Source: Squalus acanthias (lineage: Eukaryota). Taken from it: a DNA stretch of 64,000 nucleotides. Made by a program: the position numbers and the translations under genes. The stretch spans positions 310,001 through 374,000 of the forward strand of contig JASTWF010000069.1 in assembly GCA_030390025.1 (NCBI GenBank). The letters are read 5' to 3'. The notes under the pieces were generated by a model. The model saw only the letters and a program-made list of their open reading frames with translations. It made no database searches and was not told the origin of the DNA. Each line of letters begins with the position of its first letter. The first letter of the stretch is position 1. This document shows, piece after piece, positions 11,980 through 53,772 of this stretch.

Positions 11980-12108
11980 GTTCAGAAAGTCCGATAGAGC
12001 TCTTACCGGGAGTGTCCCTCCCGCTGTGTCTTCGATCCGTTTCAAGGAGAGGGAGATTCCCAATCCAGGAACTTCTGTGCCTCTCTCCAGCTGTGATATT
12101 CAGTGAGC

Positions 12109-12132
12109 ATGAGGGGGCCCTTTATCTCCAAG
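12109..12132 (+). CDS. Gene A first coding exon (MRGPFISK)
   Basis: Acceptor CTCTCTCCAG at 12090, AGCATGA start context, donor AAG|GTAGGT, phase 0 matching the next exon. Confidence 0.65.
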
Positions 12133-12429
12133 GTAGGTTAGCAATCCAGTGCAGCCTATTCACTGAGTGTAAATGGCGTCAGGGGGGTTATACTGGGAGG
12201 GGAGGCTTTGGGATGTCATGTCTTTCAGCACCACCTCTATCCCACCTCTAGACCTTTTCATTTTTCTCTCTGCCATTTGTTTTAGCTTCATTTCCAGTGT
12301 TTTAATTCCCTTTTTGCATCTTTCATCTCTCGTGTCCAATCCTGTTATGTTGGTTTTGTCAATCGTGTTCTGGTATGATATTGCGCCCAGCGCCTGTGTT
12401 AATTCTCTCTCTTTCTAACCTGTAAATAT

Positions 12430-13345
12430 TGGGAAGACCGAGGCCATTGTCTTCACTTCACGCCACAAACTCCGTTCCCTTTCCACTGATTCGATCTCTC
12501 TCTCTCTCTCTCTGGGAACTGTCTAAGGCTGACCAAGTCTGTTGGCAACCTTGGTGCCATACTTGATCACGAATTGAGCTTCCGATCGCATATCCGTTCT
12601 ATCACTAAGACCACCTCTTCCCACCTTCATAATATCGCCCGTCTCCGCCCATACCTCAACTTATCTGCTGCTGAAACCCTCATCCATGCCTTTATCACCT
12701 CCCTACTTGACTATTCCAACGCACTCCTGGCTGGCCTCCCTAGTTCTACCCTCCGTAAACTTGAGCTGATCCAAAACTCTGCTGCCCCCGTGTCCTAACT
12801 CGCACCGAGTCCCACTCACCCATCACCCCCGTGTCCTAACTCGCACCGAGTCCCACTCACCCATCACCCCCGTGTCCTAACTCGCACCGAGTCCCACTCA
12901 CCCATCACCCCCGTGTCCTAACTCGCACCGAGTCCCACTCACCCATCACCCCCGTGTCCTAACTCGCACCGAGTCCCACTCACCCATCACCCCCGTGTCC
13001 TAACTCGCACCGAGTCCCACTCACCCATCACCCCCGTGTCCTAACTCGCACCGAGTCCCACTCACCCATCACCCCCGTGTCCTAACTCGCACCGAGTCCC
13101 ACTCACCCATCACCCCCGTGTCCTAACTCGCACCGAGTCCCACTCACCCATCACCCCCGTGTCCTAACTCGCACCGAGTCCCACTCACCCATCACCCCCG
13201 TGTCCTAACTCGCACCGAGTCCCACTCACCCATCACCCCCGTGTCCTAACTCGCACCGAGTCCCACTCACCCATCACCCCCGTGCTCGCTGACCTACATT
13301 TACTTCGTTAAAAGCGCTGTATAAATGCAAGATGTTAAGTTGTTG
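12430..13345 (+). mobile_element. L2-like LINE 3' fragment
   Basis: AETLIHAFITSLLDYSNALLAGLP...ELIQNSAA is an L2 RT C-terminal pattern. Confidence 0.85.
12785..13285. repeat. 41-bp minisatellite, about 12 near-perfect units
   Basis: Unit GTGTCCTAACTCGCACCGAGTCCCACTCACCCATCACCCCC; period 41 (12790, 12831...). Confidence 0.97.
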
Positions 13346-13473
13346 CTGTAATCAATATGAACCGTTAGTGAGGAAATGGTCATTTGACTCAATGGGACTG
13401 AATATTGGGCCCGGGTGTAGAACAGGCGATCGGTGCACAAACGCTCCTTTAGCCCCACCGACCACAACAAATT

Positions 13474-14770
13474 TACTGCCCCTCTGACAGTGCGACGCTC
13501 CCTCAGTACTGCCCCTCTGACAGTGCGGCGCCCCCTCAGTACTGCCCCTCCGACAGTGCGACGCTCCCTCAGTACTGCCCCTCCGACAGTGCGGCGCTCC
13601 CTCAGTACTGCCCCTCCGACAGTGCGGCGCTCCCTCAGTACTGCCCCTCCGACAGTGCGGTGCTCCCTCAGTACCGCCCCTCTGACAGTGCGACGCTCCC
13701 TCAGTACTGCCCCTCTGACAGTGCGACGCTCCCTCAGTACTGCCCCTCTGACAGTGCGGCGCTCCCTCAGTACTGCCCCTCCGACAGTGCGACGCTCCCT
13801 CAGTACCGCCCCTCCGACAGTGCGGTGCTCCCTCAGTACCGCCCCTCTGACAGTGCGGCGCTCCCTCAGTACTGCCCCTCCGACAGTGCGGCAATTCCTC
13901 AGTACTGCACCTCCGACAGTGCGGCGATCCCTCAGTACTGACCCTCCGATAGTGCGGCGCTCCCTCAGTACTGCCCCTCCGACAGTGTGGTGCGGCGGTC
14001 CCTCAGTACTGACACTCCGACAGTGCGGCGCTCCCTCAGTACTGCCCCTCCGACAGTGCGGCACTCCCTCAGTACTGCCCCTCCGACAGTGTGGTGCGGC
14101 GGTCCCTCAGTACTGACACTCCGACAGTGCGGCGCTCCCTCAGTACTGCCCCTCCGACAGTGCGGCACTCCCTCAGTACTGCCCCTCCGACAGTGTGGTG
14201 CGGCGCTCCCTCAGTACTGTCCCTCCGACAGTGTGGTGCAGCGCTCCCTCAGTACTGCCCCTCCGACAGTGCGGCGCTCCCTCAGTACTGCACCTCCGAC
14301 AGTGCGGCGCTCCCTCAGTACTGCCCCTCCGACAGTGCGGTGCTCCCTCAGTACTGCCCCTCCGACAGTGCGGCGCTCCCTCAGTACTGCCCCTCCGACA
14401 GTGCGGCGCTCCCTCAGTACTGCCCCTCCGACAGTGCGGCGCTCCCTCAGTACTGCCCCTCCGACAGTGCGGCGCTCCCTCAGTACTGCCCCTCCGACAG
14501 TGCGGCGCTCCCTCAGTACTGCCCCTCCGACAGTGCGGCGCTCCCTCAGTACTGCCCCTCCGACAGTGCGGCGCTCCCTCAGTACTGCCCCTCCGACAGT
14601 GCGGCGCTCCCTCAGTACTGCCCCTCCGACAGTGCGGTGCGGCACTCCCTCAGTATTGGCACTGGGCGTATCGGTCTGAATTTTGTGCTCTAGTCTCTGG
14701 AGTGGGGCTTGAACCCACGACCTTCTGACTCCGAGGCGAGAGCGTTACCCACTGAGCCACGGCTGACACT
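13474..14770 (-). repeat. 33-bp minisatellite (13474-14655) with SINE tRNA head
   Basis: Same unit with a few 38-bp variants; A/B boxes on minus strand about 14700-14765. Confidence 0.95.
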
Positions 14771-14894
14771 GTGCTATCCATTCTGATACCATACAATGTG
14801 GCACTGTTTCCACCTGAATGTGGTCAAGTTCATCTGTTGCAACTTTGTGATTTGCAAGCTCGATGTTTAATTGTTTGTCTGTTACTAATTACAG

Positions 14895-14955
14895 GGACTT
14901 GCTGTGCTGAGCATATTCATACAAATCTACATTTGCCATGAGGACCCAGTGGCAG
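14895..14955 (+). CDS. Gene A signal-peptide exon (GLAVLSIFIQIYICHEDPVA)
   Basis: Acceptor CTAATTACAG, donor CAG|GTATGT, 61 nt phase 0 to 1, hydrophobic core. Confidence 0.7.
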
Positions 14956-15389
14956 GTATGTAATAATGCCGGCAATGTTAATTATGGACTGAATATTTAT
15001 CACAGGGTATCCAACAGATCTTTAATCCCTTTCTAACAGGACTGGGTTAGCGATCTACCATCCATGTCTACCGTTATCACAAGTCTAAAATTACCTGGCC
15101 TCTGTACTGCGACACATAACCCAGTCCAAAGTACAATCGCGACTGGCCAAACCAAACCAACTCCAGCAGATACAAGAATGAGTGAAGTGATTCACTCCTC
15201 ATTGCCAGAGGCATCGAAGAGAAAGATCAGGCACAGCAAAGCATCCTCGACTTTACTAACCCATCCACACAATTGACATCATCACAAGGTTCAGGAGCAA
15301 TTGGGCACTTGTTCTTAACTGACAGTCTAAATCATTACAAGCACATAGTTCATGTGTATCAGGGTATTGCAATATTATCTTAACATACA

Positions 15390-16995
15390 TGGAACCTGTA
15401 GCACAGAAACAGGCCATTCGGCCCAACTGGTCCGTGCCGGTGTTTGTGCTCCACACCAGCCTCCTCCCACCCCTCTTCATCTCACCCCATCAACATATCT
15501 TTCTATTCCTTTCTCCCTCATGTGTTTATCCAGCTTCCCCTTAAATGTATCTCTGCTCTTCGCCTCAACCACTCCCTGTGGTAGCGAGTTCCACATTCTC
15601 ACCACTCTCTGGGTAAAGAAGTTTCTCCTGAATTCCCTATTGGATTTATTAGTGACTCTCTTATATTGATGGCCCCTAGTTCTGGTCTCCCCCACAAGTG
15701 GAAACATCTTCTCTACGTCTACCCTATCGAACCCCTTCATAATTTTAAAGACCTCTATCAGGTCACCCCTCAGCCTTCTCTTTTCTAGAGAAAAGAGCCC
15801 CAGCCTGTTCAATATTTCCTGATAGGTATAACCTCTGAGTTCTGGTATCATTCTCGTAAATCTTTTTTGCACCTTCTCCGGTGCCTCTGCAGCCTATTTG
15901 TAATATGGAATCCAGAACTGTGCACAGTGCTCCAAGTGTGGTCGAACCAAGGTATATGGAGACCAGAACTGTGCACAGTGCTCCAAGTGTGGTCTAACCA
16001 AGGTATATGGAGACCAGAACTGTGCACAGTGCTCCAGGTGTGGTCTAACCAAGGTATACGGAGACCAGGACTGTGCACAGTGCTCCAAGTGTGGTCTAAC
16101 CAAGGTATAGGGAGACCAGAACTGTGCACAGTGCTCCAAGTGTGGTCTAACCAAGGTATATGCAGACCTGAACTGTGCACAGTGCTCCAAGTGTGGTCGA
16201 ACCAAGGTATATGGAGACCAGAACTGTGCACAGTGCTCCAAGTGTGGTCTAACCAAGGTATATGGAGACCAGAACTGTGCACAGTGCTCCAAGTGTGGTC
16301 TAACCAAGGTATATGGAGACCAGAACTGTGTACAGTGCTCCAAGTGTGGTTGAACCAAGGTATATGGAGACCAGAACTGTGCACAGTGCTCCAAGTGTGG
16401 TCTAACCAAGGTATATGGAGACCGGAACTGTGCACAGTGCTCCAAGTGTGGTCTAACCAAGGTATATGGAGACCAGGACTGTGCACAGTGCTCCAAGTGT
16501 GGTCTAACCAAGGTATATGGAGACCAGAACTATGCACAGTGCTCCAAGTGTGGTCTAACCAAGGTATATGGAGACCGGAACTGTGCACAGTGCTCCAAGT
16601 GTGGTCTAACCAAGGTATATGGAGACCAGAACTGTGCACAGTGCTCCAAGTGTGGTCTAACCAAGGTATATGGAGACCAGAACTGTGCACAGTGCTCCAA
16701 GTGTTGTCTAACCAAGGTGTATGGAGACCGGAACTGTGCACAGTGCTCCAAGTGTGGTCTAACCAAGGTATATGGAGACCGGAACTGTGCACAGTGCTCC
16801 AAGTGTGGTCTAACCAAGGTATATGGAGACCGGAACTGTGCACAGTGCTCCAAGTGTTGTCTAACCAAGGTATATGGAGACCGGAACTGTGCACAGTACT
16901 CTCTGGGGAAATAACGTTTCTCCTGAATTCCCTATTGGATTTTTTAGTGACTATCTTATGCTGATGGCCCCAAGCTCTGGTCTCGCCCACAAAGT
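15390..16995 (-). mobile_element. CR1 LINE fragment containing a 51-bp tandem array
   Basis: [11 protein letters not shown]...RRLRGDLIEVFK; array within the LVRPHLEHCAQFWSP segment. Confidence 0.9.
15905..16900. repeat. 51-bp minisatellite, about 19 units
   Basis: Unit CCAGAACTGTGCACAGTGCTCCAAGTGTGGTCTAACCAAGGTATATGGAGA; explains the 17-aa periodic ORFs. Confidence 0.97.
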
Positions 16996-17174
16996 ATGTG
17001 AGGACAGGATGGGTTGGGTGTGATGCCTCACATGGTTGAATAGCCAATGATGCTTGCTGTTTAAGGTTCTCGCATCAAGAATGTGTCCAAAGTACTCTAT
17101 GGTCAATGGCTTCAGGAGAGAAAATGAGGAGGAAATTGCAGGGGGGCGGGGGGGCGGTGTGGAGCGAAAAATGC

Positions 17175-17745
17175 ATACAGGGCTTTGGTGAGACCACACC
17201 TGGGGTACTGTGCACAGTTTTGGTCTCATTACCTAAGGAAGGATATACTTTCCTTAAGAGGCGGTGCAACAAACGAAGGTTAGATTGATTCCTGGGATGA
17301 GGGTTGTCCCATGAGAAGAGATTGAGTAGAATGGGCCTATACTCTCTGGAGTTTAGAAGAATGAGAGGTGATCTCATTGAAACGTGTAAGATTCTGAGAG
17401 GGATTGACAGGGTAGATGCTGAGAGGCTGTTTCCCCCTGGCTGGAGAGTCTAGAACCAGGGGTCACAGTCTCAGGATAAGGGGTCGGCCATTTAAGACCG
17501 AGATGAGGAGGAATTTCTTCACTCAGAGGGCGGTGAATCTTTGGAATTCTCTACCCCAGAGGGCTGTGGAGGCTCAGTCTTTGAGTATATTCAAGGCTGA
17601 GATCGATAGATTTTTGGACTCTAGGGGAATGGGGATTGGGTGGGAAAGTGGAGTGGAGGTCGAAGATCAGCCATGATCTTATTGAATGGCGGAGCAGGCT
17701 CGAGGGGCCGAATGGCCGACTCCTGCTCCTATTTCTTACGTTCTT
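17175..17745 (+). mobile_element. CR1 LINE 3' fragment
   Basis: RTRGHSLRIRGRPFKTEMRRNFFTQR. Confidence 0.9.
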
Positions 17746-17792
17746 AAAACAAGTGGAACGTTGCCTGAAGCTGTTTCTTCCGTCTCTTTCAG

Positions 17793-18041
17793 ATTGTACT
17801 GGAAAACCGGCTAATATAACATTGAAGGAATGTGTGACTGAGAGTCAGAAGCCAATCCTGAAACGTGGAATAAAACACGTGATTTGCAATAGTTTAAATT
17901 GCACAGAGAGTTACGCTGCAAGTTTTAACAGCAGTGGCTGTTACAACTTTTACATCCGGAACATTTCAGCGGAAGATATTGTTCAATGGTGGCTCGAATA
18001 CGGGTCCTCCGAGCCTATTAGTTTCAAATTAGTGTCTGCCG
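17793..18041 (+). CDS. Gene A extracellular exon, atypical Cys-rich Ig-like domain
   Basis: Acceptor TCTCTTTCAG, donor CCG|GTGAGT, 249 nt phase 1-1, open; DCTGKPANITL...FYIRNISAEDIVQWWLEY...FKLVSA; 5 Cys, 4 N-glycosylation sequons. Confidence 0.8.
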
Positions 18042-18299
18042 GTGAGTTTAAAAGAATCTTCGTGCGGTCCTGCTTTGCGCTAAACACTTGTTTTCTCCTG
18101 AACAGGTCTTCACTTTCTTGGCCCGGAAATTGCAGGGAAAATAAGGACGATTTCACGGCCATTAATCAGCTCGCTTAAAAAAAAAACCCCCGGCAATTGT
18201 TGGCGAGGAGGAGATACGGCGTGTGTTCCACTTCTCCCCACATTGCTGGACGATTAGCGTCGCTCCGCCATTAGCCTCGCCAAAATGGAACAAATCACC

Positions 18300-18950
18300 A
18301 AGTTCCCTCCGAGTCACGCACACAACTGTCCCGACTTGGAAATATATCGGCCGTTCCTTCATCGTCGCCGGGTCAATATCCTGGAACTCCCTCCCGAACA
18401 GCACTGTGGAGCACCTTCACCACACGGACTGCAGCGGTTCAAGTCGGCAGCTCACCACCACCTTGGGGAACTTGGAGGTGGTGGTGTTCCCATTCGCCTG
18501 CTGCCCTTGTCCTTCTAGGTGGAAGAGGTCGCGGGTTTGGGAGGTGCTGCCGAAGAAGCCTTGGCGAGTTGCTGCAGTGCATCTTGTAGATGGTGCACAC
18601 TGCAGCCACGGTGCGCTGGTGGTGGAGGGAGTGAATGTTTAAGGTGGTGGATGGGGTGCCGATCAAGCGGGCTGCTTTGTCCTGGATGGTGTCGAGCTTC
18701 TTGAGTGTTGTTGGAGCTACACTCATCCAGGCAAGTGGAGAGTATTCCATCACACTCCTTACTTGTGCCTTGTAGATGGTGGAAAGGCTTTGGGGAATCA
18801 GGAGGTGAGTCACTCGCCACAGAATACCCAGCCTCTGACCTGCTCTTGTTGCCACAGTATTTATGTGACTGGTCCAGTTAAGTTTCTGGTCAATGGTGAC
18901 CCGTAGGGTGTTGATGGTGGGGGATTCGGTGATGGTAATGCCGTTGAAAG
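18300..18950. mobile_element. LINE RT C-terminal fragments (second LINE family)
   Basis: Minus strand IYKAQVRSVMEYSPLAW...KKLDTIQDKAARLI; plus-strand tail piece about 18300-18460. Confidence 0.8.
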
Positions 18951-19304
18951 TAAGATGGGAATCTGAGCTCGGAGGTGATACAATCCATGATCGCTGTTCA
19001 GTCACTATGCGACTGGGGTGACATAGCGAAGGCTGCCTGCTTCCTGTAGATCTGCACCACAGCAGGAGGGGTCACCTAGAATCCCACAGCACAGAAGGAG
19101 GCCACTCGGCCCATCGTGCCTGTGCCGGCTCTTTGAAAGAGCTCTCCAATTAGCCTCACAGCCCCTGGCTCTTTCCCCATAACACTGCAAATTTTTCCCC
19201 TTCAAGTATTTATCCAGGGGAAGGGGGAGAAAATGCGTTGAACAGGAGAAAAATGCAAATATTTTACGAACTGCTCAATTAAATTGTCTGCTTTGCTTTT
19301 CCAG

Positions 19305-19370
19305 ATTGTTCTACCCAAGAACCAAACGAAACTTTTGCAGATCCCGACAAACATTTCAATACAAACCGAG
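19305..19370 (+). CDS. Gene A stalk exon (DCSTQEPNETFADPDKHFNTNR)
   Basis: Acceptor CTTTGCTTTTCCAG, donor GAG|GTAACA, 66 nt phase 1-1. Confidence 0.72.
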
Positions 19371-19609
19371 GTAACACCAGCTCAGATTTAATACTTTTTA
19401 TACAAGGTGTCAGCAGTGATTCAGTGGGTTTAGCTCTCTCTCTCTCTCTCTCTCTCTCGCCTCTGAGTCAGACGGTCGTGGGTTCAAATCCCACTCCAGA
19501 CACTAGGGCACAAATTCCAGGCCCACACTGCCCAGTGCCAGTACTGGGGTGACATAGCGAAGGCTGCCTGCTTCCTGTAGATCTGCACCACGGCAGGAGG
19601 GGTCACCTA

Positions 19610-20060
19610 GAATCCCACAGCACAGCAGGAGGTCACTCGGCCTTGTAACTAAGATCCCTCATCCCCGGAACCTTCACATCCCTCCTAAAGTGTGGTGACC
19701 AGAACTGGACACAATACTCTAGTTGTGGCCTAACCAGTGCTTTATAAAGGTTCAGCATAACTTCTCTACTTTTGTACTCAATACCTCTATTTAAGAAGCC
19801 CAAGATCCTATATGCTTTGCTAACCACTCTCTCAATATGTCCCGCCACCTTCAGGGACCTATGCACATTAACTCCCAGGTCCCTCTGTCCCTGCACATTC
19901 TTTAAAACTGTGCCATTAAGTGTATATTGCCTCTCCCTGTTCCTTCTGCCAAAATGCATCACCTCACACTTCTCTGTATTAAATTCCATCTGCCACTTGT
20001 CTGCCCATTCTGCTAGCCTTTCTATGTCCTGTTGCAGTCGATTGGCATCATCCTCCTTTG
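19610..20060 (-). mobile_element. CR1 LINE fragment
   Basis: WADKWQMEFNTEKCEVMHFG...LVRPQLEYCVQFWSP. Confidence 0.9.
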
Positions 20061-20818
20061 TGAACCAGATGGGTTTTTCCGACAATCCGGCAGTTTCATG
20101 GTCACCATTACTGATACTAGCTTTTTTATTTAACTGAATTTAAATTCCCCAGCTGCCGTGGTGGGATTTGAACTCGTGTCTCATTGGATCAGTTACTCCA
20201 GGCCTCTGGACTTCTAGTCCAGTAACATAACCACGATCCCACCGGTCCTGGGATGGGGGAGCCATGTGACGTAATCATACTCCCAGAATCAACCCTAAAT
20301 CCAGACTCCTCTATCACCATCCCCGGGTACGTCCTGTCCCACCGGCCGGACAGACCCACCAGAGGTGGGAGCTCAGTGGTATACAGTCGGGTGGGAGTGG
20401 CCCCGGGAGTCCTCAACATTGACGACAATGGGGAGTAATATTGGCCCAGCTATGAAACCGGCGTTCCACCCGATCCCAAGACTTCCCCGACCCACAGATT
20501 AGTTTAAAATTCCCCCTCGGTTTCAGCGGGCTGTTGGGTTTAATTGTAGGGAGGCTGCTGCTTGTCAGTCTCCAGTTATCTCTATCGGAAAGCCTGTATC
20601 GATCGCATTGTGGGGCAGTGTGTGTGTGTGTTCAAGGAGCTGTGGGCTGGCCTGGTGTGTGTGTTTATTGGAATCTAACCTCTCCCATCGCTCCGGGGCT
20701 AGAATTGACCAGGGATCTATTTGTGCTGGGGATGGTTCTGAAGCACTCGGTGCTGAAGGTCTCTGCTGTTAGTTTTGTGAGTGTGTCCCGGTCTGTTAAC
20801 GGTTTATTCTGTCTCTAG

Positions 20819-20924
20819 ATCCTGGACTCTCTACTGGAGCAGCAGTTGGATTGGGAATCGGAATTCCTACTCTTCTTACTCTTGCTGTTTTCATTGGGGT
20901 TTTCCTGATCCGAAAGCGATGGTG
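20819..20924 (+). CDS. Gene A transmembrane exon (cassette copy 1)
   Basis: Acceptor TGTCTCTAG, donor GTG|GTGAGT; DPGLSTGAAVGLGIGIPTLLTLAVFIGVFLIRKRW, phase 1 to 2. Confidence 0.85.
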
Positions 20925-22191
20925 GTGAGTTCTAGAATGTGCCGCAGTTTCCATTGTTGATTCTAGTTTTGTTCTATTACACTTTGTGTTTAAAGATGTT
21001 GTGTGCAGCGATACACTTTGAGCTGTGTGCGATGCTTCAATGTAGCATTATCCCATCACTTCCAGCTTGTTGTCATCTCTGTTGCTCCGTTCACTAGCCA
21101 CCGACTCCATCCCTCTCCCTGGCCACTGTCTGAGGCTGAACCAGTTCACAACCTCGGTGTCTTATTAGACCCTGAGCTGAGCTTCCGACCCGTATCCTCC
21201 CCATCACCAAGACCGCCTACTTCCACCTCCGTAACATCGCCCGTCTCCGCCCCTACCTCAGCTCATCTGCTGCTGAAACCCTCATCCATGCCTTACCGCA
21301 AAACTCGACCATTTCAAAACTCTCCTTTCTGTATCCTAACTCACACCAAGTCCCGTTCACCCATCACCCTCTGTGTTCACTGACCTACATTCATCCTCCT
21401 GTTCAAATCCCTCCGTGGCCTCCTCCAGCCCCACAACCCTCTGAGATCTCTGCACTCCTCCAATTCTGGCCTCTTGAGCATCCCTGATTTCCATCGCTCC
21501 ACCATTGGCGGCCGTGCCTTCAGCTGCCTGGAAGCTCTGGAAGTCCCTCCATAAACCTCTCCGCCTCTCTGTCCTCCTTTAAGACTCTCCTTAAAACTGA
21601 CCTCTTTGACCAAGTTTTTGGTCTCCTGCCCTAATATCTCCTTATGTGGCTTGCTGTCAAATTTTGTTTGATTGCCACTGTGAAGCACCTTGGGCGATAA
21701 AGGCGCTATATAAATTCAAGCTGTTGCTCTATCTCCACTCGTGCTTACATTTTTCAAACCACCCCCTTGACCCGGCCATCAGTGATTCCGATCACTGAGA
21801 AGGCCATCCTGGATTTCCTCGTCTCCCTCAACATCCACATCTCCCTGCCCACCTCTTACCCCCCACTTCCCCCTTTGCCCCCCGATGGGGAGAAGGAACT
21901 ATTGCTGGGATCTCTAACTCTTCTCTGGTCTTTCCCCGTCACGATATTTCTGCCTCCGTTAGCCTGTTTGGCCACTGCTAGAACAGGCTTGACCACATCA
22001 AGAAATACCATCTCCATCTGTGGCTCTCAGTACTTCAGGATCAGCCTGGAGAGTACGGACATGCCCAACATCCTCCTGTCTGATCTGATCCCCATCATCT
22101 TCAGCTCAGTGTTAACCCAGGTCCTCATCAATTCTTCTTAATCTCCAAAATTGAGGCTAGCTGTCATTTTTCTATTTCTCTGGTGCCTCAG

Positions 22192-22331
22192 GCAGCACGG
22201 GTCCTGTGGAGTGTACAGCTCCTGCCCATTGCCTCCCCTATAAACCTCCTCTCCTCTACACTCTGCTCCATCAACGTGCAGCTCCTGTGACACATTTTCC
22301 AGCTACCAGTGGTGCCCAGGATGTTGTGTAA
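22192..22331 (+). CDS. Gene A candidate cytoplasmic exon with tandem acceptors (22192 / 22196)
   Basis: Pyrimidine tract then CAG|GCAG|C; first acceptor gives WQHGSCGVYSSCPLPPL* (stop 22243), second gives CTGPVEC...LLYTLL...QDVV* (stop 22331). Confidence 0.55.
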
Positions 22332-22627
22332 TTTAATCGGTCTGTGCTCCTGAACGGCTCCTTTACACACTTGTCCAAAGTGTTGGATCCTTTTAACGTA
22401 ACCTGCACTCTGCTGGTTTCTCTCTCCTAGGAACTGTTTGAAAAAGAGACTCCAGCAATCCAGAAGCAGCACCTACTGACGACCCTTTGACAAACGTGCC
22501 TTGTTTGGATGAAGCACGGAGCCTTGTGACAACAGCAGCTGAGCATCAGACTGGAGCGGCTGGAGAACAAAACCTTCTGGGGAACCTGGCTGTCCAGCAC
22601 TGACTGAGTTTATGCTGCACTGTGCCT

Positions 22628-22686
22628 GTATATATTTTATATATATATATTTTTTATATATTTTTTATATATATATATATATATAT
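22628..22686. repeat. (TA)n microsatellite
   Basis: Direct inspection. Confidence 0.9.
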
Positions 22687-23029
22687 TTTGGAATGTCACT
22701 TTTCTATATGTACATTTTGAACCTGTGATTAAAGGGAAGCCCCTGTTTATACGAGTGGATGTACAGTCTTGCTTTGTTTAAGGACCGAAAGCAGAGTAAC
22801 GGTGAACGGTTGTTTTTCAGACTGGAGGGAGGTATACAGTGGTGTCCAAGGGCTTGCTGTTGGGACCACTGCTCTTTTGATGTATATTAATGACCTGGTC
22901 TTGGGTATACAGGGCATCATTTCAAAGTTTGCAGATGACACGGAACTCTGAAATGTAATAAGACAGCGAGATGGGGCAGGAACAGACTTCAGGAGGATCG
23001 AGAGCGAGACAGACTGAATCATAGAATAG

Positions 23030-26940: not shown

Positions 26941-27043
26941 ATCCTGGACTCTCTACTGGAGCAGCAGTTGGATTGGGAATCGGAATTCTTACTCTTCTTA
27001 CTCTTGCTGTCATTGGGGATTTCCTGATCCGAAAGCGACGGTG
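26941..27043 (+). CDS. Second TM exon copy (alternative or pseudo-exon)
   Basis: Acceptor TCTCAAG, donor GTGAGT; DPGLSTGAAVGLGIGILTLLTLAVIGDFLIRKRR. Confidence 0.55.
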
Positions 27044-28458: not shown

Positions 28459-29367
28459 TTTAATCGGTCTGTGCTCCTGAACGGCTCCTTTACACACTTG
28501 TCCAAAGTGTTGGATCCTTTGAACGTAACCTGCAGCCTGCTGGTTTCTCTCCTAGGAAACAAAATAGAGACTCCAGCAATCCAGAAGTAGCACCTACTGA
28601 CGACCCTATGACAAATGTGCCTTGTTCGGATGAAGCACGGGGCCTTGTGACAACAGCAGCTGAGCATCAGACTGGAGCGGCTGGAGAACAAATCATTCTG
28701 GGGAACCTGGCTGTCCAGCACTGACTGAATTTACGCTGCACTGTGCCTGGGTCAGGGAGGGACCGACCAGCCCGGTATTGTAGTTATCATAGAATCAGAG
28801 AATAGCACAGCACAGGAGGAGGCCATTCTATCCAGTGACTCCTGGAAGTGTTACCCCTTTACTGAAAACTGTCCAATCAGTAGTTCATTCTATTCTATAT
28901 CTCAGTATTACTGTGTCCAGGACCACCTTTAGCTCTGTAACCCACTGATCTGACTCTGAGATGTTGCCATATCAATGAGCAGGAATATCAGCTACATTCT
29001 GATTAATCACCTCTATTCAATCTCCCCGTAACCTTCTCTGCTCTAAGGAGAACAACCCCAGCTTCTCCAGTCTCTCCACATAACTTTACCGTTCTGGTAA
29101 ATCTCCTCCGCTCCCTCTCCAAGGCCTTGAGATCCTTCCTAAAGTGTGTGATGCCCTGAATTGCACACAATACTCCAGCTGGGGCCTAACCAGTGGTTTA
29201 TAAAGGTTATAGCAATAACTTCCTTGCTTTTGTATTCAATAACTGTATTTATAAACCCACGGACCTGTATCTCTCCACTAGCCTTTAACTTGAGAACCTT
29301 GGGCTCCCAAATCTCTTCACTCTACAGTTCCTCATCTCACTGTTTTATACACACAATTCATATTCTA

Positions 29368-33120: not shown

Positions 33121-34021
33121 TCTCAGGAGGGAGCGCCGCACTGTCGGAGGAGCAGTACTGAGGGAGAGCCGCACTGTCGGAGGGGCAGTACTGAGGGAGA
33201 GCCGCACTGTCGGAGGGGACAGTACTGAGGGAGCGCCGCACTGTCGGAGGGACAGTACTGAGGGAGAGCCGCACTGTCGGAGGGGACAGTACTGAGGGAG
33301 CGCCACACTGTCGGAGGGACAGTACTGAGGGAGTGCCGCACTGTCGGAGGGACAGTACTGAGGGAGCGCCGCACTGTCGGAGGGGCGGTACTGAGGGAGC
33401 GCCGCACTGTCGGAGGGGGCAGTACTGAGGGAGCTGCCGCACTGTCGGAGGGTCAGTACTGAGGGAGCACCGCACTGTCAGAGGGGCAGTAATGTGGAAA
33501 TATGATTTTGCCCTTACCAGTGCATGATGGGATACTTGACATCTAATGTATCATGTACCATTGCCTGTGGACGAAAAAGTCGAGTCACCAGCAACTAACA
33601 TAACGACATCTGGCCAAAGAATGAAAAACAATTCTGTTAAAGGTCAATCTCGTTTCTCTTTATCTGCCTGAATACTGAAATAGCTTTGTACTGAGTTGAC
33701 TGCCTACCTTTATACATGATCATATGGAACTGGTGTTCTCCACTGTACAAACATGATAATCAGACATGAGTGAGTTAATCATCCTTTTGGTAACAAGACT
33801 CAGACAATGCCTCCTGACAGAATATAATTAACTTACCTTGTCTGAAGACATTTCTGTCCTGCTGACCTTGAGTCTCCCGACAACTGGACAACCTGGAACA
33901 CTACAGACAGTTACCCACAGATCCGACCAAAGAACACACCCGCCAACTCAATAGACTGATCAAGACCTTCGATCCAGACCTTCAAAGCATCCTACGCGCT
34001 CTCATCCCACGTACTCCCCGC

Positions 34022-35602
34022 GTGGGAGACTTCTACTGCCTCCCAAAGATACACAAAGCCAACACACCCGGACGTCCTATCGTATCAGGCAACGGAACCC
34101 TGTGTGAGAACCTCTCTGGATACGTCGAGGGCATCCTGAAACCCATCGTACAGGGAACCCCCAGCTTCTGCCGCGACACCACAGACTTCTTGCAGAAACT
34201 CAGCACCCATGGACCTGTTGAACCAGGAACACTCCTCGCCACGATGGACGTATCGGCACTCTACACCAGTATCCCCCACAATGACGGCATCGCTGCGACA
34301 GCCTCAGTACTCAACACCAACAACAGCCAATCTCCAGACGCCATCCTACAACTCATCCGCTTCATCCTTGACCACAATGTCTTCACCTTTGATAACCATT
34401 TTTTTACCCAAACACACGGAACAGCCATGGGGACCAAATTCGCACCCCAATACGCCAACATCTTCATGCACAAGTTCGAGCAAGACTTCTTCGCTGCACA
34501 GGACCTCCAGCCAACGCTGTACACCAGATACATCGACGACCTTTTCTTCCTTTGGACCCACGGCGAAGGATCACTGAAAAGACTACACGATAACATCAAC
34601 AAGTTCCATCCCACCATCAAACTCACCATGGACTACTCCTCAGAATCAGTTTCATTCCTGGACATACGAATCTCCATCAAAGACGGACACCTCAGCACTT
34701 CACTCTACCGCAAGCCCACGGACAACCTCACGATGCTCCACTTCTCCAGCTTCCACCCTAACCACGTTAAAGAAGCCATCCCCTATGGACAAGCCCTGCG
34801 AATACACAGGATCTGCTCAGACGAGGAGGAACGCGATGGACACCTACGGACGCTGAAAAACGCCCTCGTAAGAACGGGATATGACACTCGACTCATCGAT
34901 CGACAGTTCCGACGGGCCACAGCGAAAAATCGCATAGACCTCCTCAGAAGGCAAACACGGGACACAACCAACAGGGTACCCTACGTCGTTCAGTACTTCC
35001 CCGGAGCGGAGAAACTACGCCATGTTCTTCGCAGCCTTCAACATGTCATCGATGACGACGAACACCTCGCTAAGGCCATCCCCACACCTCCACGACTTGC
35101 CTTCAAACAGCCGCCTAACCTCAGAAGTACCATCGTTCGCAGCAATTTACCCAGCTTTCAGGATAACAGCGACCACAACACCACACAACCCTGCCATGGC
35201 AACCTCTGCAAGACATGCCAGATCATCAACACAGATACCACCATCACACGTGAGGACACTAACCACCAGGTACATGGTACATACTCATGTGACTGGGCCA
35301 ACGTTGTCTACCTGATACGTTGCAGGAAAGGATGCCCCAGAGCATGGTACATCGGCGAGACCATGCAGACACTGAGACAACGTATGAACGGACACCGCGC
35401 AACAATCGCCAGACAGGAGTGTTCCCTCCCAGTCGGGGAACACTTCAGCAGTCAAGGACATTCAGCCTCGGATTTGCGGGTAAATGTTCTCCAAGACGGC
35501 CTTAGAGACACACGACAACGCAAAATCATCGAGCAGAAACTGATAGCCAAGTTCCGCACTCATGAGGACGGCCTCAACCGGGATCTTGGGTTCATGTCAT
35601 GA
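34022..35602 (+). CDS. Penelope-like RT + GIY-YIG endonuclease (frame open from about 33878; stop 4 codons early)
   Basis: 526-aa ORF; the copy at 3570-3962 ends SRYMT* while this one ends MS*. Confidence 0.9.
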   Translation: MGDFYCLPKIHKANTPGRPIVSGNGTLCENLSGYVEGILKPIVQGTPSFCRDTTDFLQKLSTHGPVEPGTLLATMDVSALYTSIPHNDGIAATASVLNTNNSQSPDAILQLIRFILDHNVFTFDNHFFTQTHGTAMGTKFAPQYANIFMHKFEQDFFAAQDLQPTLYTRYIDDLFFLWTHGEGSLKRLHDNINKFHPTIKLTMDYSSESVSFLDIRISIKDGHLSTSLYRKPTDNLTMLHFSSFHPNHVKEAIPYGQALRIHRICSDEEERDGHLRTLKNALVRTGYDTRLIDRQFRRATAKNRIDLLRRQTRDTTNRVPYVVQYFPGAEKLRHVLRSLQHVIDDDEHLAKAIPTPPRLAFKQPPNLRSTIVRSNLPSFQDNSDHNTTQPCHGNLCKTCQIINTDTTITREDTNHQVHGTYSCDWANVVYLIRCRKGCPRAWYIGETMQTLRQRMNGHRATIARQECSLPVGEHFSSQGHSASDLRVNVLQDGLRDTRQRKIIEQKLIAKFRTHEDGLNRDLGFMS

Positions 35603-35970: not shown

Positions 35971-36624
35971 TTTCAAATAAAACTGTTGGACTATAACCTG
36001 GTGTTGTGCGACTTCTCACTTTTGTCCACCCCAGTCCAACACCGGCGTTTCCGCATCATGACCTTGAGTGTCTTTGTTTAAACTCTTAATTCGTTTAAGA
36101 TGATACAATACCATTACACGTGATTTATGGAACGCTTGCCTGTTTTAATGTATAAATATGCTGCATTCGCTAATGTTCTTTGGAGTGTGAGCCTAGCCAT
36201 TGACTAGACTCTCGCTCCCCTTGTGCAAGTAAAAGAATAAAGCTTTGTTTATCTGACGGTACAGTTTGTTACAGAGTCTTACTCAGAGTCGAGACTTCGA
36301 CAGTACTGAGGGAGCGCCGCACTGTCGGAGGGGCAGTACTGAGGGAGCGCCGCACTGTCAGAGGGGCAGTACTGAGGGAGCGCCGCACTGTCGGAGGGGC
36401 AGTACTGAGGGAGCGCCGCACTGTCGGAGGGGCAGTACTGAGGGAGTGCCGCACTGTCGGAGGGTCAGTACTGAGGGAGCGCCGCACTGTCGGAGGGGCA
36501 GTACTGAGGGAGTGTTGTTGTTTGGCGAACCGACCTCTACCTAGCGGAAGTTGAACGCCAACTCTCTGACACCTCCTCCTACCTCCACCTGGACCATGAC
36601 CCCACTACCGAACATCAAGCCACC

Positions 36625-46645: not shown

Positions 46646-47028
46646 CTTCTTACAAAAAAAAAACTGTCCGATTGGTATTACACAATCTACTGGATGTAAA
46701 AGCAGTGGAACGAATGAGTAGCCACATTTTTGAAATAATATTTACTGTGTCCAAGCTCAGTCAGCGCTGGACAGCCAGATTCCCCAGAAGGTTTTGTTTT
46801 CCAGCCGCTCCATTCTGATGCTCAGCTGCTGTTGTCACAGGGCCCCGTGCTTCATCCGAACAAGGCACGTTTGTCAAAGGGCCGCCATTAGATGCTGCTT
46901 CTGGATTGCTGGAGTCTCTATTTTGTTTCCTAGGAGAGAGAAACCAGCAGAGTGCAGGTTACGTTAAAAGGATCCAACACTTTGGACAAGTGTGTAAAGG
47001 AGCCGTTCAGGAGCACAGACCGATTAAA

Positions 47029-47168
47029 TTACACAACATCCTGGGCACCACTGGTAGCTGGAAAATGTGTCACAGGAGCTGCACATTGATGGAGCAGAGT
47101 GTAGAGGAGAGGAGGTTTATAGGGGAGGCAATGGGCAGGAGCTGTACACTCCACAGGACCCGTGCTGC
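47029..47168 (-). other. Third copy of the cytoplasmic exon (untranslated in gene B if the TM stop is used)
   Basis: Reverse complement of 22192-22331 with one visible change. Confidence 0.6.
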
Positions 47169-47235
47169 CTGAGGCACCAGAGAAATAGAAAAATGACAGC
47201 CAGCCTCAATTTTGGAGATTAAGGAGAATTGATGA

Positions 47236-48482
47236 GAACATAAGAAATAGGATCAGGAGTCGGCCATTCCACCCCTCGAGCCTGCCCCACCATTCAATAA
47301 GATCATGGCTGAACTGATCTAGGCCGCAACGCCACTTTCCCGCCCGCTCCCCATAACCCTTGACTCCCCTGTAGCTGAAATATCTGTCTATCTCCACCTT
47401 GAATATATTCAATGACCCAGCCTCCACAGCTCTCTGGGGTAGAGAATTCCAAAGATTCACGACCCTCAGAAGAAATTCCTCCTCATCTCCGTTTTAAATG
47501 GGCGACCCCTTATCCGGAAACTGTGTCCTCAAATTCTAGATAGCCCCATGAGGGGAAAAATCCTCTTTGCATCTTCCCGGTCGAGCCCCCTCAGAATCTT
47601 ATGTTTCAATAAGATCACCTCTCATTCTTCTAAACTCCAATGAGTATAGACCCAACCTGCTCAACCTTTCTTCATAAGACAACCCCTTCATCCCAGGAAT
47701 CAACCTAGTGAACCTTCTCTGAACTGCCTCCAATGCAAGTATATCCCTATCCCTCCTTAAATAAGGAGACCAAAACTGTACGCAGTACTCCAGGTGTGGT
47801 CTCACCAGCGCCCTGTACAGTTGTAGCAAGACTTCCCTACTTTTATACTCCATCCCCCTTGCAATAAAGGCCAACATTCCATTTGCCTTCCTAATTACTT
47901 GCTGTACCTGCATGCTAACTTTGTGTTTCATGTATGAGGACCTCCAGATCCCTCTGTACCGCAGCATTATGTAGTCTCTCTCCATTTAAATAATAATTTG
48001 CTTTTTTATTTTTCCTACCAAAGTGGATAACCTCACATTTTCCCACATTATACTCCATCTGCCAAATTTTTGCCCACTTAACCTATCCATATCCCTTTGC
48101 AGACTCTGTGTCCTCCTCACAACTTGTGTTCCCACCTATCTTTGTATCATCAGCAAATTTGGCTACATTACACACGGTCCCTTCATCCAAGTCATTAATA
48201 TAGGTTGTAAATATTTGAGGCCCCAGCACTGATCCCTGTGGCACCCCACTAGTTACAGTTTGCCAACCAGAAAATGACCCATTTATCCCAACTCTCTCTT
48301 TTCTGTTAGTTAGCCAATCCTCTATCCATGCTAATATATTACCCCCAACCCCGTGAGCTCTTATCTTGTGCAGTAACCTTTTATGTGGCACCTTATCGAA
48401 TACCTTCTGGAAATCCAAATACACTACATCTACTGGTTCGCCTTTATCCACCCTGCTCGTTACATCAAAGAACTCTAGTAAA
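47236..48482 (-). mobile_element. CR1 LINE insertion specific to cassette copy 3
   Basis: YLDFQKVFDKVPH, SGVPQGSVLGP, FADDTK; absent from copies 1 and 2. Confidence 0.9.
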
Positions 48483-49675
48483 TGAGTAAAAGATGATGGG
48501 GATCAGATCAGACAGGAGGATGTTGGGCATGTCCGTACTCTCCAGGCTGATCCTGAAGTACTGAGAGCCACAGATGGAGATGGTATTTCTTGATGTGGTC
48601 AAGCCTGTTCTAGCAGTGGCCAAACAGGCTAACGGAGGCAGAAATATCGTGACGGGGAAAGACCAGAGAAGAGTTAGAGATCCCAGCAATAGTTCCTTCT
48701 CCCCACCGGGGGGCAAAGGGGGAAGTGGGGGGTAAGAGGTGGGCAGGGAGAGGTGGATGTTGAGGGAGACAAGGAAATCCAGGATGGCCTTCTCAGTGAT
48801 CGGAATCACTGATGGCCGGGTCAAGGGGGTGGTTTGAAAAATTTAAGCACAAGTGGAGATAGAGCAACAACCTGAATTTATATAGCGCCTTTATCGCCCA
48901 AGGTGCTTCACAGTGGCATTATCAAACAAAATTTGACAGCGAGCCACATAAGGAGATATTAGGGCAGGTGACCAAAAGCTGGGTCAAAGAGGTCAGTTTT
49001 AAGGAGCGTCTTAAAAGGAGAGAGAGAGGCGGAGAGGTTTAAGGAGGGAATTCCAGAGCTTAGGGTCCAGGCAGCTGAAGGCACGGCCGCCAATGGTGGA
49101 GCGATGGAAATCAGGGATGCTCAAGAGGCCAGAATTGGAGGAGTGCAGAGATCTCGAGGGTTGTGGGGCTGGAGGAGGCCACGGAGGGATTTGAACAGGA
49201 GGATGAATGTAGGTCAGTGAACACAGAGGGTGATGGGTGAACGGGACTTGGTGTGAGTTAGGATACAGAAAGGAGAGTTTTGAAATGGTCGAGTTTTGCG
49301 GTAAGGCATGGATGAGGGTTTCAGCAGCAGATGAGCTGAGGTAGGGGCGGAGACGGGCGATGTTACGGAGGTGGAAGTAGGCGCTCTTGGTGATGGAGGA
49401 TATGGGTCGGAAGCTCAGCTCAGGGTCTAATAAGACACCGAGGTTGTGAACTGGTTCAGCCTCAGACAGTGGCCAGGGAGAGGGATGGAGTCGGTGGCTA
49501 GTGAACGGAGCAACAGAGATGACAACAAGCTGGAAGTGACGGGATAATGCTACATTGAAGCATCGCACACAGCTCAAAGTGTATCGCTGCACACAACATC
49601 TTCAAACACAAAGTGTAATCGAACAAAACTAGAATCAACAATGGAAACTGCGGCACATTCTAGAACTCACCACCA

Positions 49676-49767
49676 TCACTTTCGGATCAGGAAAACCCCA
49701 ATGACAGCAAGAGTAAGAGGAGCAAGAATTCCGATTCCCAATCCGACTGCTGCTCCAGTAGAGAGTC
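49676..49767 (-). CDS. Gene B transmembrane exon ending in a stop (GLSTGAAVGLGIGILAPLTLAVIGVFLIRK*)
   Basis: Paralogous acceptor TAG reads TCG; an in-frame CAG lies 6 nt downstream; CGA codon reads TGA. Confidence 0.6.
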
Positions 49768-50844
49768 CTGGATCGAGAGACAGAATAAACCGTTAACAGA
49801 CCGGGACACACTCACAAAACTAACAGCAGAGACCTTCAGCACCGAGTGCTTCAGAACCATCCCCAGCACAAATAGATCCCTGGTCAATTCTAGCCCCGGA
49901 GCGATGGGAGAGGTTAGATTCCAATAAACACACACACCAGGCCAGCCCACAGCTCCTTGAACACACACACACTGCCCCACAATGTGATCGATACAGGCTT
50001 TCCGATAGAGATAACTGGAGACTGACAAGCAGCAGCCTCCCTACAATTAAACCCAACAGCCCGCTGAAACAGAGGGGGGATTTTAAACTAATCTGTGGGT
50101 CGGGGAAGTCTTGGGATCGGGTGGAATGCCGGTTTCACACCCGGCTCAATATTACTCCCCATTGTCGTCAATGTTGAGGACTCCCGGGGCCACTCCCACC
50201 CGACTGTATACCACTGAGCCCCCACCTCTGGTGGGTCTGTCCTTCCGGTGGGACAGGACGTACCCGGGGATGGTGATAGAGGAGTCTGGGATGTAGGGTT
50301 GATTCTGGGAGTATGACCATGTCACACAGCTCTCCCAACTTGGGCACCAGTCCCCAGATGTTAGTGAGGAGGACTTTGCAGGGTTGACTGGGCTGGGTTT
50401 GCCTTTCCTGTGTCCTGGTTCAATGCCTGGCTCGTCCAATTTAATTCTTGTTTATCTTTCTAGTGGTTTGATAGAAACTGATTGACTTGCTGGGCCACAG
50501 AGGGCCGTGAAAAGTCAACCACGTTGGTGTGGGACTGGAGTCACCTATAGACCAGACCGGGTAAGGACGGCAGGTTTCCTTCCCTAAAGGACATCAGTGA
50601 ACCAGTTGGGTTTGACGACAATCCAACAGCTTCAGGGTCACTTCTATTGATACCAACTTTTTATTTCCAGATTTATTCTCAAATTCTCAAAGTGCCATGG
50701 TGGGATTTGAACTCACCTTCTCTGGATTATGAGCCCAGGCCTCTGGATTATTAATCTAGTAACAGAACCCCTGCACTATCGTACCCATAAAATTGGTGAT
50801 AGACTCCTGATCAATGCAGATGCCCTGAAACAGAAACCTCTCAC

Positions 50845-51189
50845 CTGTTACAGAGAGATGGACTGAGACATCTTGCTCCCAATAAAAGCCCACAGCCGTC
50901 CTCCTGAGAATCAGACACTCATACTCGTTCTGGTCGGACTGCCTGAGGTCAGAGAGCAGAACTGACCAGTTGCCGTGTTCCAGTTGATCTTTGAAGAGGT
51001 TTGTTCTGTTTCTGAACCGCGGGTCTTGCTGTGTCAAATCATCGCTCCCATCGACAAACTTGTGGACAACTTCACGCTCGGGTATTTGCCAAACTACTTG
51101 TAAATCTGGGACTGGGGCATTCCCTTTGTAGGTACAGGGCAGCACAACCTGCCCCCCAAGGAACCCGGAAACTGTGACAGGTGAAAAAT
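50845..51189 (-). CDS. Gene B IgV exon 2, B7/butyrophilin-like V-set domain
   Basis: 345 nt phase 1-1, TTTTCCAG / CAG|GTGAGA; VVLPC, VVWQ, QDPRFRNRTNLF, GNWSVLL, DQNEYEC. Confidence 0.9.
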
Positions 51190-51867: not shown

Positions 51868-51906
51868 CTGGTGCGGGCGTGTTCGGTACAGGTGAACGGG
51901 CTCGCT
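51868..51906 (-). CDS. Gene B Pro-rich linker exon (ERARSPVPNTPAP)
   Basis: Acceptor GTTTTCTTTAG, donor CAG|GTAAGT, 39 nt phase 1-1. Confidence 0.75.
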
Positions 51907-52589: not shown

Positions 52590-53772
52590 AGTCAATGTTG
52601 AGGACTCCCGGGGCCACTCCCACCCGACTGTATACCACTGAGCTCCCACCTCTGGTGGGTCTGTCCTTCCGGTGGGACAGGACATACCCGGGGATGGTGA
52701 TAGAGGAGTCTGGGATGTAGGGTTGATTCTGGGAGTATGACCATGTCACACAGCTCTCCCAACTTGGGCACCAGTCCCCAGTTGTTCGTGAGGAGGACTT
52801 TGCAGGGTCGACTGGGCTGGGTTTGCCTTTGCTGTGTCCTAGTTCGATGCCTGGCTCATTCAGTAAAATTCTTGTGGTTTGATAGAAACTGATTGGCTTG
52901 CTGGGCCACAGAGGGCCGTGAAAAGTCAACCACGTTGCTGTGGGACTGGAGTCACCTATAGACGAGACCGGGTAAGGATGGCAGGTTTCCTTCCCTAAAG
53001 GACATCAGTGAACCAGTTGGGTTTTATGGCAATTCAACAGCTTCATGGTCACTTCTATTGATACCAACTTTTTATTTGCAGATTTAGTCTCAAATTCTCA
53101 AAGTGCCATGGTGGGATTTGAACTCACCTTCTCTGAATTATAAGCCCAGACCTCTGGATTATTAATCTAGCAACAGAACCCCTGCACTATCGTACCCATA
53201 AAATTGCTAACAAACTCCTGATCAATGCAGAAACAGAAACCTCTCACCTGTTACAGAGAGATGGACGAGAACATCTTGCTCCCGATGAAAGCCCTCACCC
53301 GTCCTCCTGAAAATCAGACACTCATACTCGTTATGGTCGGACTCCCTGAGGTCAGAGAGCAGAACTGACCAATTGCCGTGATCCAGTTGATCTTTGAAGA
53401 GGTTTGTTCTGTTTCTGAACCGCGGGTCTTGCTGTGTCAAATCATCGCTCCCATCGACAAACTGGTGGACAACTTCACGCTCGGGTATTTGCCAAAGGAC
53501 TTGTAAATCTGGGACTGGGGCATTCCCTTTGTAGGTACAGGGCAGCACAACCTGCTCCCCAAGGAACCCGGAAACTGTGACAGGCAAAGAACCTGGAAAA
53601 GATTCAAAGTATTTATCCTCAGATATAACCTCCCTGCTGGAACGTTACATCCCAAGCTTCACAGGGATACACTGCAAGAAGCTCTGACCAGTAACTCACT
53701 GCTTTCACTGCTGTGGGAAGGCTGAAGCTCAGGCATGTACTATTTACAACAAGCACCATTTATATAGCATCC
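52590..53772. repeat. Tandem duplicate unit carrying the IgV exon (paralog about 50167-51368)
   Basis: Exon and flanking intron LINE pieces near-identical. Confidence 0.92.
53248..53592 (-). CDS. Gene B IgV exon 1, B7/butyrophilin-like V-set domain
   Basis: 345 nt phase 1-1; canonical B-strand Cys, C-strand Trp, D-x-x-x-Y-x-C. Confidence 0.9.

Follow-up and report, generated by a model that had tools for sequence, protein, structure and literature searches.

A predicted V-type immunoglobulin domain with displaced cysteines in a shared-exon array of the shark Squalus acanthias

The stretch of Squalus acanthias DNA analysed here (assembly GCA_030390025.1, contig JASTWF010000069.1, positions 310,001 to 374,000 of the forward strand), a window of 64,000 nucleotides whose own coordinates are used below unless the contig is named, raises the question of what kind of membrane protein is encoded by a set of short exons between positions 12109 and 22733, and whether it belongs to any family that already has a name. 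On balance we favour the explanation that it is a 184-amino-acid single-pass glycoprotein with one predicted short V-type immunoglobulin (Ig) domain, referred to below as the head, and that it likely serves as a non-signalling cell-surface ligand or adhesion molecule.

Gene structure and transcripts

Five exons were located by script, with AG/GT ends at the internal exons, phases of 0,1,1,1,2 and an open frame of 168 codons. The coding part of exon 1 (12109..12132, + strand) starts with the ATG at 12109 and supplies the first 8 amino acids of a likely signal peptide, the hydrophobic core and end of which lie in exon 2 (14895..14955, +), with a hydropathy peak at residues 9-21. Exon 3 (17793..18041, +) encodes the 82-amino-acid Cys-rich domain with its predicted short V-type Ig fold, 5 Cys and 4 N-glycosylation sequons, exon 4 (19305..19370, +) a 22-amino-acid stalk with the sixth ectodomain Cys at its start, and exon 5 (20819..20924, +) an uncharged transmembrane helix with GxxxG motifs and a basic stop-transfer, a module common to the whole array described below. 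The six ectodomain Cys (residues 30, 42, 60, 65, 78 and 113, with an additional Cys22 in the leader) and the five sequons (N36, N64, N74, N85 and N119) were confirmed by script in the numbers that an initial annotation of this DNA had given.

Twelve sequencing runs contained matching words, none of them recorded as RNA; four from one study, each containing a third to a half of the query words, were used, and their transcript contigs were aligned to 16950-23000 at 85% likeness. Splice joints are considered here from 15 of 300 listed, four of which concern the gene, and as joints were found over GT..AG introns the runs are argued to be RNA. The joint 20924-22431 (GT..AG) was present in three of the four runs, and the single run without it is also the one in which no contig has the 3 additional bases of this copy's membrane exon, so that the joint goes with this copy's type; two or three near-identical 3' copies could also yield it. 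Shark homologues match 22412-22600 by tblastn. On these two grounds the last exon of the initial annotation, which had acceptors at 22192 or 22196 and gave proteins of 185 or 213 amino acids, was replaced: neither acceptor occurs among the listed joints, and 22192 is traversed unspliced by contigs in all four runs. Use of 22431 gives the protein of 184 amino acids with a stop at 22479, beyond the span 12091..22331 of the initial annotation, the coding part of exon 6 (22431..22479, +) being a 15-amino-acid tail in this copy after a 2-base loss relative to the 57-amino-acid tail type, while the whole exon (22431..22733, +) holds the tail frame conserved in the family, which is not in frame here and ends at 22603, and an ATTAAA at 22728. 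The six-exon layout with compatible phases proposed earlier therefore holds for exons 1-5 and fails for the sixth.

The joint 18041-19306 was found in two of the four runs, in contigs carrying 26 mismatches, and is for this reason assigned to another copy or allele; two variant tail starts, in two of the four runs each, correspond to other tail types on the contig. Two contigs, one with 1 mismatch and one with 7, stop matching at 18040 and run on for 137 and 89 unaligned letters, the former matching over 201 bases up to the exon 3 boundary. A contig with 7 mismatches departs from the genome at 17790, 3 bases before exon 3, with 115 letters beyond, which fits an exon 2-3 joint since CAG is the end of exon 2 as well as of intron 2. 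Splicing was thus observed for exons 3-4 (paralogue type) and for exons 5-6, and the six-exon gene, with its last exon corrected, is real. Its structure is more than chance because exon 3 exists in 6 copies, exons 2-4 recur in order, and 12 of 17 HMMER matches are full homologues.

One paralogue-type contig reads through the donor of exon 4 (window 19371-19423). The read-through frame ends in a short hydrophobic stretch in two of the six copies (L008/L009 and L034), partly derived from a CT microsatellite, and may possibly represent a lipid-anchored or secreted form.

Shark homologues and the fold of the head

A HMMER search with exon 3 against 1.84 billion representative proteins gave 17 matches, 12 of them full-domain homologues and 5 unrelated (P0001, P0009, P0015, P0016 and P0017, dropped because they are long, match over short stretches that are mostly repeated, and have Pfam domains of other kinds). 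An alignment search of exon 3 gave 7 shark proteins, 3 of them new beyond the HMMER set, and word-index searches with exon 3 alone gave no match. As judged from these sequences, the head family is present in six shark genera (Hemiscyllium, Rhincodon, Scyliorhinus, Cetorhinus, Heterodontus and Chiloscyllium); homologues from rays, chimaeras or bony vertebrates did not appear in the searches, which covered representative sequences only. All 11 named homologues (P0014 is nameless) are labelled uncharacterized or hypothetical, in agreement with the initial annotation, which could assign the protein to no named family. XP_038670882, XP_060708628, XP_048476625, XP_067874694, XP_078394435 and GCC17306 have the same domain at 29-43% identity, and most of these uncharacterized proteins share stalk, membrane helix and tail with the window gene, while differing among themselves in Cys set and anchor type. 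For these computationally annotated proteins no name, domain call or paper was found, the six identifiers being without papers, nor was any description of the family met in literature searches, whose coverage stopped short of supplements and subscription journals.

Several homologues match both exon 3 and the tail exon at 22431, two of them also the membrane exon, and in them the stalk leads straight into the helix, which, as a predicted model from other species, favours the joining of exons 4 and 5. The whale shark protein P0003 has the order head, stalk, V domain (65% identical to V exons of the window) and then the same anchor; others have different anchors, P0011 ending in a short hydrophobic stretch that resembles, by eye, a glycosylphosphatidylinositol (GPI) signal. 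None of the 12 homologues scanned has a charged helix residue or a motif of the immunoreceptor tyrosine-based inhibitory (ITIM) or switch (ITSM) type, and none of the 12 has a C2 domain between head and membrane helix in a Pfam scan. In P0004 (Scyliorhinus torazame GCB78193) the Cys-rich domain stands behind a V-C1-hydrophobic segment resembling Ig light chains, an arrangement unmatched on this contig, and the entry is probably a merged gene model.

The deep-alignment fold is that of P0011, window exon 3 itself having been folded with a shallow alignment only, and its transfer is based on homology, P0011 being 36% identical to exon 3 with all six Cys (HMMER E 7.9e-9). The model, from an 18-row alignment including the window exon, is all-beta, with a predicted local distance difference test score (pLDDT) of 94-98 over residues 21-110 (five of five models, means 75.7-78.4), and its predicted topology is a two-sheet beta-sandwich with strands A'BCC'DEFG, as in V-type domains of the Ig superfamily. 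Every PDB match listed by Foldseek for this model is an Ig domain (IgLONs, pIgR D1, CD58, 2B4, CRTAM, TREM, antibody), and viral single-V glycoproteins also match the fold. A wide VIA search returned CD48 (Z 11.0, root-mean-square deviation (rmsd) 2.0, 86 residues aligned) and CD58 (Z 10.7, rmsd 2.2, 86 aligned), and a second look Dpr11 (Z 12.2, rmsd 2.0, 89 aligned), CD2 D1 (Z 12.0, rmsd 1.7, 86 aligned) and 2B4 (Z 11.3, rmsd 1.7, 87 aligned). Among the weak PDB sequence matches of exon 3, 12 of 20 were antibody light-chain variable (VL) domains, mostly over strands C'-G, and the top Atlas match for P0006 was V-set (0.91, 164 features in common), which serves as a lead only. Taken from this model, the head very probably has the Ig V-type fold. 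The initial annotation had read it as a divergent V-type domain without the B-F disulfide, similar to CD2 and CD58, and had proposed Foldseek as a check; the Ig sandwich predicted for P0011, with CD2, CD48, CD58 and 2B4 among its tied best matches, bears this out.

Cysteines and other residues were scored over the 18 aligned rows. The position of the canonical C-strand Trp is Leu in all 18 and that of the F-strand Cys is Leu in 17, and neither the canonical B-F disulfide nor the Trp is found in the head; the B-side Cys lies 3 residues beyond its canonical place. The C' and C'' Cys are invariant in all 18 rows, the B and D/E Cys are lost jointly in P0006, P0005 keeps the B Cys and has a shifted second one, and three homologues with Pro for the A' Cys, as well as two that start after it, have a new strand E Cys and keep the after-G Cys. 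Such co-variation suggests the bridges C30-C113 (A' to after G), C42-C78 (B to D/E) and C60-C65 (C'-C''), and these three non-canonical bridges are predicted to stand in for the lost B-F bridge. The predicted head is a new variant of the Ig V domain in an unnamed shark family.

The array and the divergence of its copies

Exon 3 has 6 matches in the genome, all on this contig, and no further copy was found elsewhere among the 17, 17 and 35 candidates scored, making the copy number a lower bound. Between 20 and 1684 kilobases (kb) of the contig there are 4 copies of exon 1 (97.5-100% identical) and 6 each of exons 2, 3 and 4, exons 2-4 recurring in order in all six copies and exon 1 being present in four, together with 14 membrane exons, 17 tail exons and V exons of which 10 are whole and 11 truncated; one further V, one membrane and one tail copy lie in the first 20 kb. 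Thirteen of the 17 tails are of 55-57 amino acids without tyrosine, two (this copy and one 3' fragment copy, which carry the 2-base loss) are of 15 amino acids, and two stop immediately.

The V exons are B7-like and precede the same membrane and tail exons, at about 90-99% nucleotide identity of these, so that the array shares these two exons between the head gene and the B7-like V exons, an arrangement absent from the initial annotation. The V exons are of the V-set, CD276 (E 6e-18) and B7-H4 (E 1e-13) being closest among solved structures, and all 10 whole ones examined are open. Two B7-H3/H4-like V exons lie in the window on the - strand, both open with AG/GT ends: one at 53248..53592 (Pfam V-set E 3.9e-9), which is 65% identical to the V domain of P0003, and a second at 50842..51186 (Pfam V-set E 6.2e-9), to which the two structural matches above belong. 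Behind them stand a third transmembrane exon copy (49671..49773, -), broken by a CG acceptor and an in-frame stop, and a third tail exon copy (46761..46929, -) with an open 55-amino-acid frame. No leader exon belonging to the V exons of 46761-53592 (-) was identified, and they may form the 3' part of the head gene that lies on the same strand at a distance of 50 kb (contig 413-422 kb), an order like that of P0003. No V or C exon was found between exons 4 and 5 on the gene strand, nor a B7 C domain adjoining the V exons. Variants would arise in the array as its modules (head, B7-like V and anchor) are duplicated and recombined.

Further copies were noted alongside. A second transmembrane exon (26941..27043, +), a possible alternative 3' module, has an Asp within its helix, and a second tail exon (28556..28724, +) has an open 55-amino-acid frame; a membrane exon copy at contig 298374 has an Arg at the outer edge of the helix. 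One exon 3 copy is split in its middle by a Gypsy-type long terminal repeat (LTR) retrotransposon with an open frame of 1325 amino acids (L014:366-4340, -). The truncated V exons lie in eleven places over contig 42-671 kb (e.g. L020, L022 and L026), and most break at one shared point, the start of a repeat bearing a 33-base minisatellite, which suggests a single breakage copied many times.

Divergence was compared over 5 unbroken copies of exon 3. The exon is variable at 39 of 240 columns and intron 3 at 74 of 1245 (p 7.5e-7), about 3 times more in the exon; the variable sites fall 16/15/8 on codon positions 1/2/3, all indels are in-frame, and 30 amino-acid state changes stand beside 7 silent ones. 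The sites lie in C-C', C'', the E-F loop, F and G. Diversifying selection on the head is possible.

Known families and possible function

The CD2/SLAM group is among the closest to the head. Its N domains are equally short, V-type, glycosylated and without the B-F disulfide, and gave structural Z values of 10.1-12.0, best or tied-best; the group has a distal IgV domain lacking the B-F disulfide (PMC5990624) and a membrane-proximal IgC2 domain (PMC12506779), and 2B4 has an A-G bridge (PMC12506779) such as is predicted in the head. The ligands CD58 and CD48 may also be comparable in their ends, with a short tail here or, by eye, a lipid-anchor-like end in P0011. In the head gene, by contrast, the IgC2 domain is absent and a 22-amino-acid stalk takes its place, two further disulfides are predicted, the C strand has a Leu, identity is 8-16%, and no ITSM or Pro-rich tail was seen. 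The neighbourhood also appears to differ, being Siglec-like and FFAR-like (209 contig open frames were scanned, 99 from 383 clusters and 110 from 504, with Siglec-like, TRIM and G protein-coupled receptor (GPCR) matches) rather than made up of the genes named for CD58 (PMC5990624); for linkage to igsf3, ttf2, ptgfrn, nhlh2, gdap2 and wdr3, such an open-frame scan could miss short marker exons. The head gene would work most like a CD2-family ligand yet is no member, because the IgC2 domain is missing.

CEACAM N domains resemble the head in being V domains without the canonical disulfide and in their clustered, fast-evolving copies. Strand F of CEACAM carries the pattern Tyr-x-Leu, as does strand F of the head, and the D-E loop Asn of CEACAM (N70, the equivalence being by eye) is found in 17 of 18 rows, with the full sequon in 15; CD2 has a similar site. 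The Siglec/FFAR neighbourhood is like that on human 19q13. CEACAM N domains differ in their length of about 110 amino acids against about 85-90 in the head, and the head gene has six Cys, no A/B IgC domains and no member with an ITIM or activation motif (ITAM) among those found. The conserved Arg64-Asp82 salt bridge (PMC4079198) is not kept, the Asp position having Asp in 5 of 18 rows, all from this genome, and His in 7, and the D-strand Arg being present in none. The structural matches listed, which are tied, include no CEACAM chain.

Shark V genes like B7-H3, B7-H4, MOG or BTN have the same membrane and tail exons, and both domains occur together in P0003; the head profile nevertheless aligned with the neighbouring B7-like V exon at an hhalign probability of only 0.4% (E 0.17), so that the head is not of B7 type, and gave no significant match with the Siglec-like V exons. 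Proteins like CD300, TREM and pIgR, together with skate MDIR, share with the head gene a single V domain with stalk, an extra disulfide near C-C' and a modular multigene organisation, and pIgR D1 and TREM2 are among the tied fold matches. They keep the B-F disulfide and the Trp, and signal via charged helices or ITIMs; none of this is seen here, the window helix being uncharged and the charged membrane residue or ITIM being absent from all 12 homologues. With CD2/SLAM, CEACAM and B7 each failing, the earlier view that the gene cannot be assigned to a named family stands.

Since the helix is uncharged, no ITIM is present in any of the 12 homologues and this copy has little of the tail left, signalling by the protein alone is unlikely, and of the two roles first suggested for it, immune receptor or ligand, the ligand is favoured and the receptor fits less. 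The ligand or adhesion role is argued by comparison with CD58 and CD48, in which the GFCC' face binds the counter-receptor (PMC5990624): through that face the head would engage either a counter-receptor or its own kind on the cell opposite, and any signal would arise in the partner cell. A broader proposal, which we offer tentatively and consider doubtful as a whole, is that sharks have their own modular ligand array beside the Siglec/FFAR cluster, in which a CD2-like head with three disulfides is combined with up to two V domains of the B7-H3/H4 type, or none, and with a common anchor of the membrane, short-tail or lipid kind; the modules would be shuffled by exon duplication and splicing into hybrid adhesion-plus-costimulation ligands without bony-vertebrate counterpart, the head diversifying under pressure from pathogens or polymorphic receptors.

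Several results weigh against these readings. The RNA nature of the four runs, all of one study, is a guess, and the check by spliced reads proposed earlier succeeded only in part, joints 1-2, 2-3 and 4-5 being absent from the 15 of 300 listed. For window exon 3, the model built from 5 close rows was of an alpha/beta, ferredoxin-like kind (pLDDT 68, predicted template-modelling score (pTM) 0.49), Pfam found no Ig match in it, only PAN_3 at E 0.41, and V-set was found in 1 of 14 rows (E 0.034). Dpr11, IgLONs and antibody VL score within 1 Z of the CD2-family matches, a tie that leaves the fold silent on function. The tail of this copy has lost its frame, and 13 of 17 copies keep 55-57 amino acids; pN/pS is 1.39 with silent sites likewise above the intron rate, the codon test of omega > 1 was not significant (2dL 1.0-1.5 at kappa 1.5-2, where omega = 1 is not rejected, and 5.6 at kappa 3), and the variable sites include the E-F loop besides the CC' and FG side.

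An alternative that we consider unlikely is a pathogen-facing receptor or decoy similar to CEACAM N, in which binding of microbes or viruses drives copy gain and head divergence and the short-tailed, read-through and lipid-anchored forms are decoys. The excess of variation in exon 3 over intron 3, its codon-position pattern and its in-frame indels agree with it, but intron homogenisation by gene conversion could produce the same exon/intron contrast and omega is not significantly above 1. The Siglec/MAG-like cluster and FFAR2-like genes on the contig recall human 19q13 and viral single-V glycoproteins match the fold, yet the CEACAM Arg-Asp bridge is not kept; the exon 4 read-through contig and the hydrophobic end in two of six copies would suit decoys, but no partner gene with an ITIM or charged helix occurs among the homologues scanned. 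In Xenopus, the diversification of ceacam N exons falls on the CC'C''FG face (PMC5112662).

It is rather unlikely that this copy is a decaying duplicate, transcribed, truncated in its tail and near neutral, within a birth-and-death array of a functional family. The 2-base loss shared with one 3' fragment copy, the 11 truncated V exons, the exon 3 split by a Gypsy-type insertion, the two of six heads without exon 1, an omega near 1 and a membrane-exon depth derived mostly from other copies in three of the four runs (about half in the fourth) point that way, whereas the frame, the six Cys and the splice sites of exons 1-5 are intact and the contig with 1 mismatch ends at the exon 3 boundary. A ligand may also not need a tail, CD58 having short-tailed and GPI forms (PMC12506779).

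A non-Ig head, either a small ferredoxin-like alpha/beta module or a piece akin to the beginning of fibrinogen-like domains, is highly improbable: the first exon 3 model, which matched generic ferredoxin-like folds only and had a ribosomal protein as its best VIA match (Z 9.0, rmsd 2.1, 79 aligned), came from 5 near-identical rows, with models of 42.7-68.4 and no Foldseek match reaching E 0.001, and is rejected as a shallow-alignment artefact against the far more confident 18-row Ig model, while the angiopoietin-1 match (E 0.007) spans 25 residues of 87 positions and is treated as chance.

If the favoured ligand reading is correct, the protein is a testable candidate for adhesion or costimulation partners of shark lymphocytes. 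Its V-type domain is predicted to replace the canonical disulfide and Trp by three other bridges, and the linkage of a CD2-like head to B7-like domains through common anchor exons bears on the relation between the CD2, CEACAM and B7 lineages. Inventories of immune surface molecules in cartilaginous fish rely mostly on searches with mammalian names, and families that, like this one, go unrecognised by Pfam are missed in them. Vertebrates commonly have Ig families that are confined to one lineage and evolve fast, and the head family is no new kind of system.

The wider contig holds a Siglec/MAG-like cluster at 515-1215 kb (L045-L118), with 11 whole and 3 split V exons and many C exons, interleaved with the end of the head/B7-like array. 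Two FFAR2/3-like receptors (L149:5315-6325 and L154:771-1877), a third, rhodopsin-type GPCR (L144:4169-5197) and a TRIM RING/B-box exon (L134:393-1130) are also present; human MAG, CD22 and FFAR1-3 are neighbours on 19q13.1. A retrovirus-like element (L043:1326-8253, -) has gag-like and pol-like frames and a third frame of 655 amino acids without a Pfam match. Within the window, two long open frames at 33872-35602 and 36508-38292 resemble Penelope-type reverse transcriptase/GIY-YIG elements.

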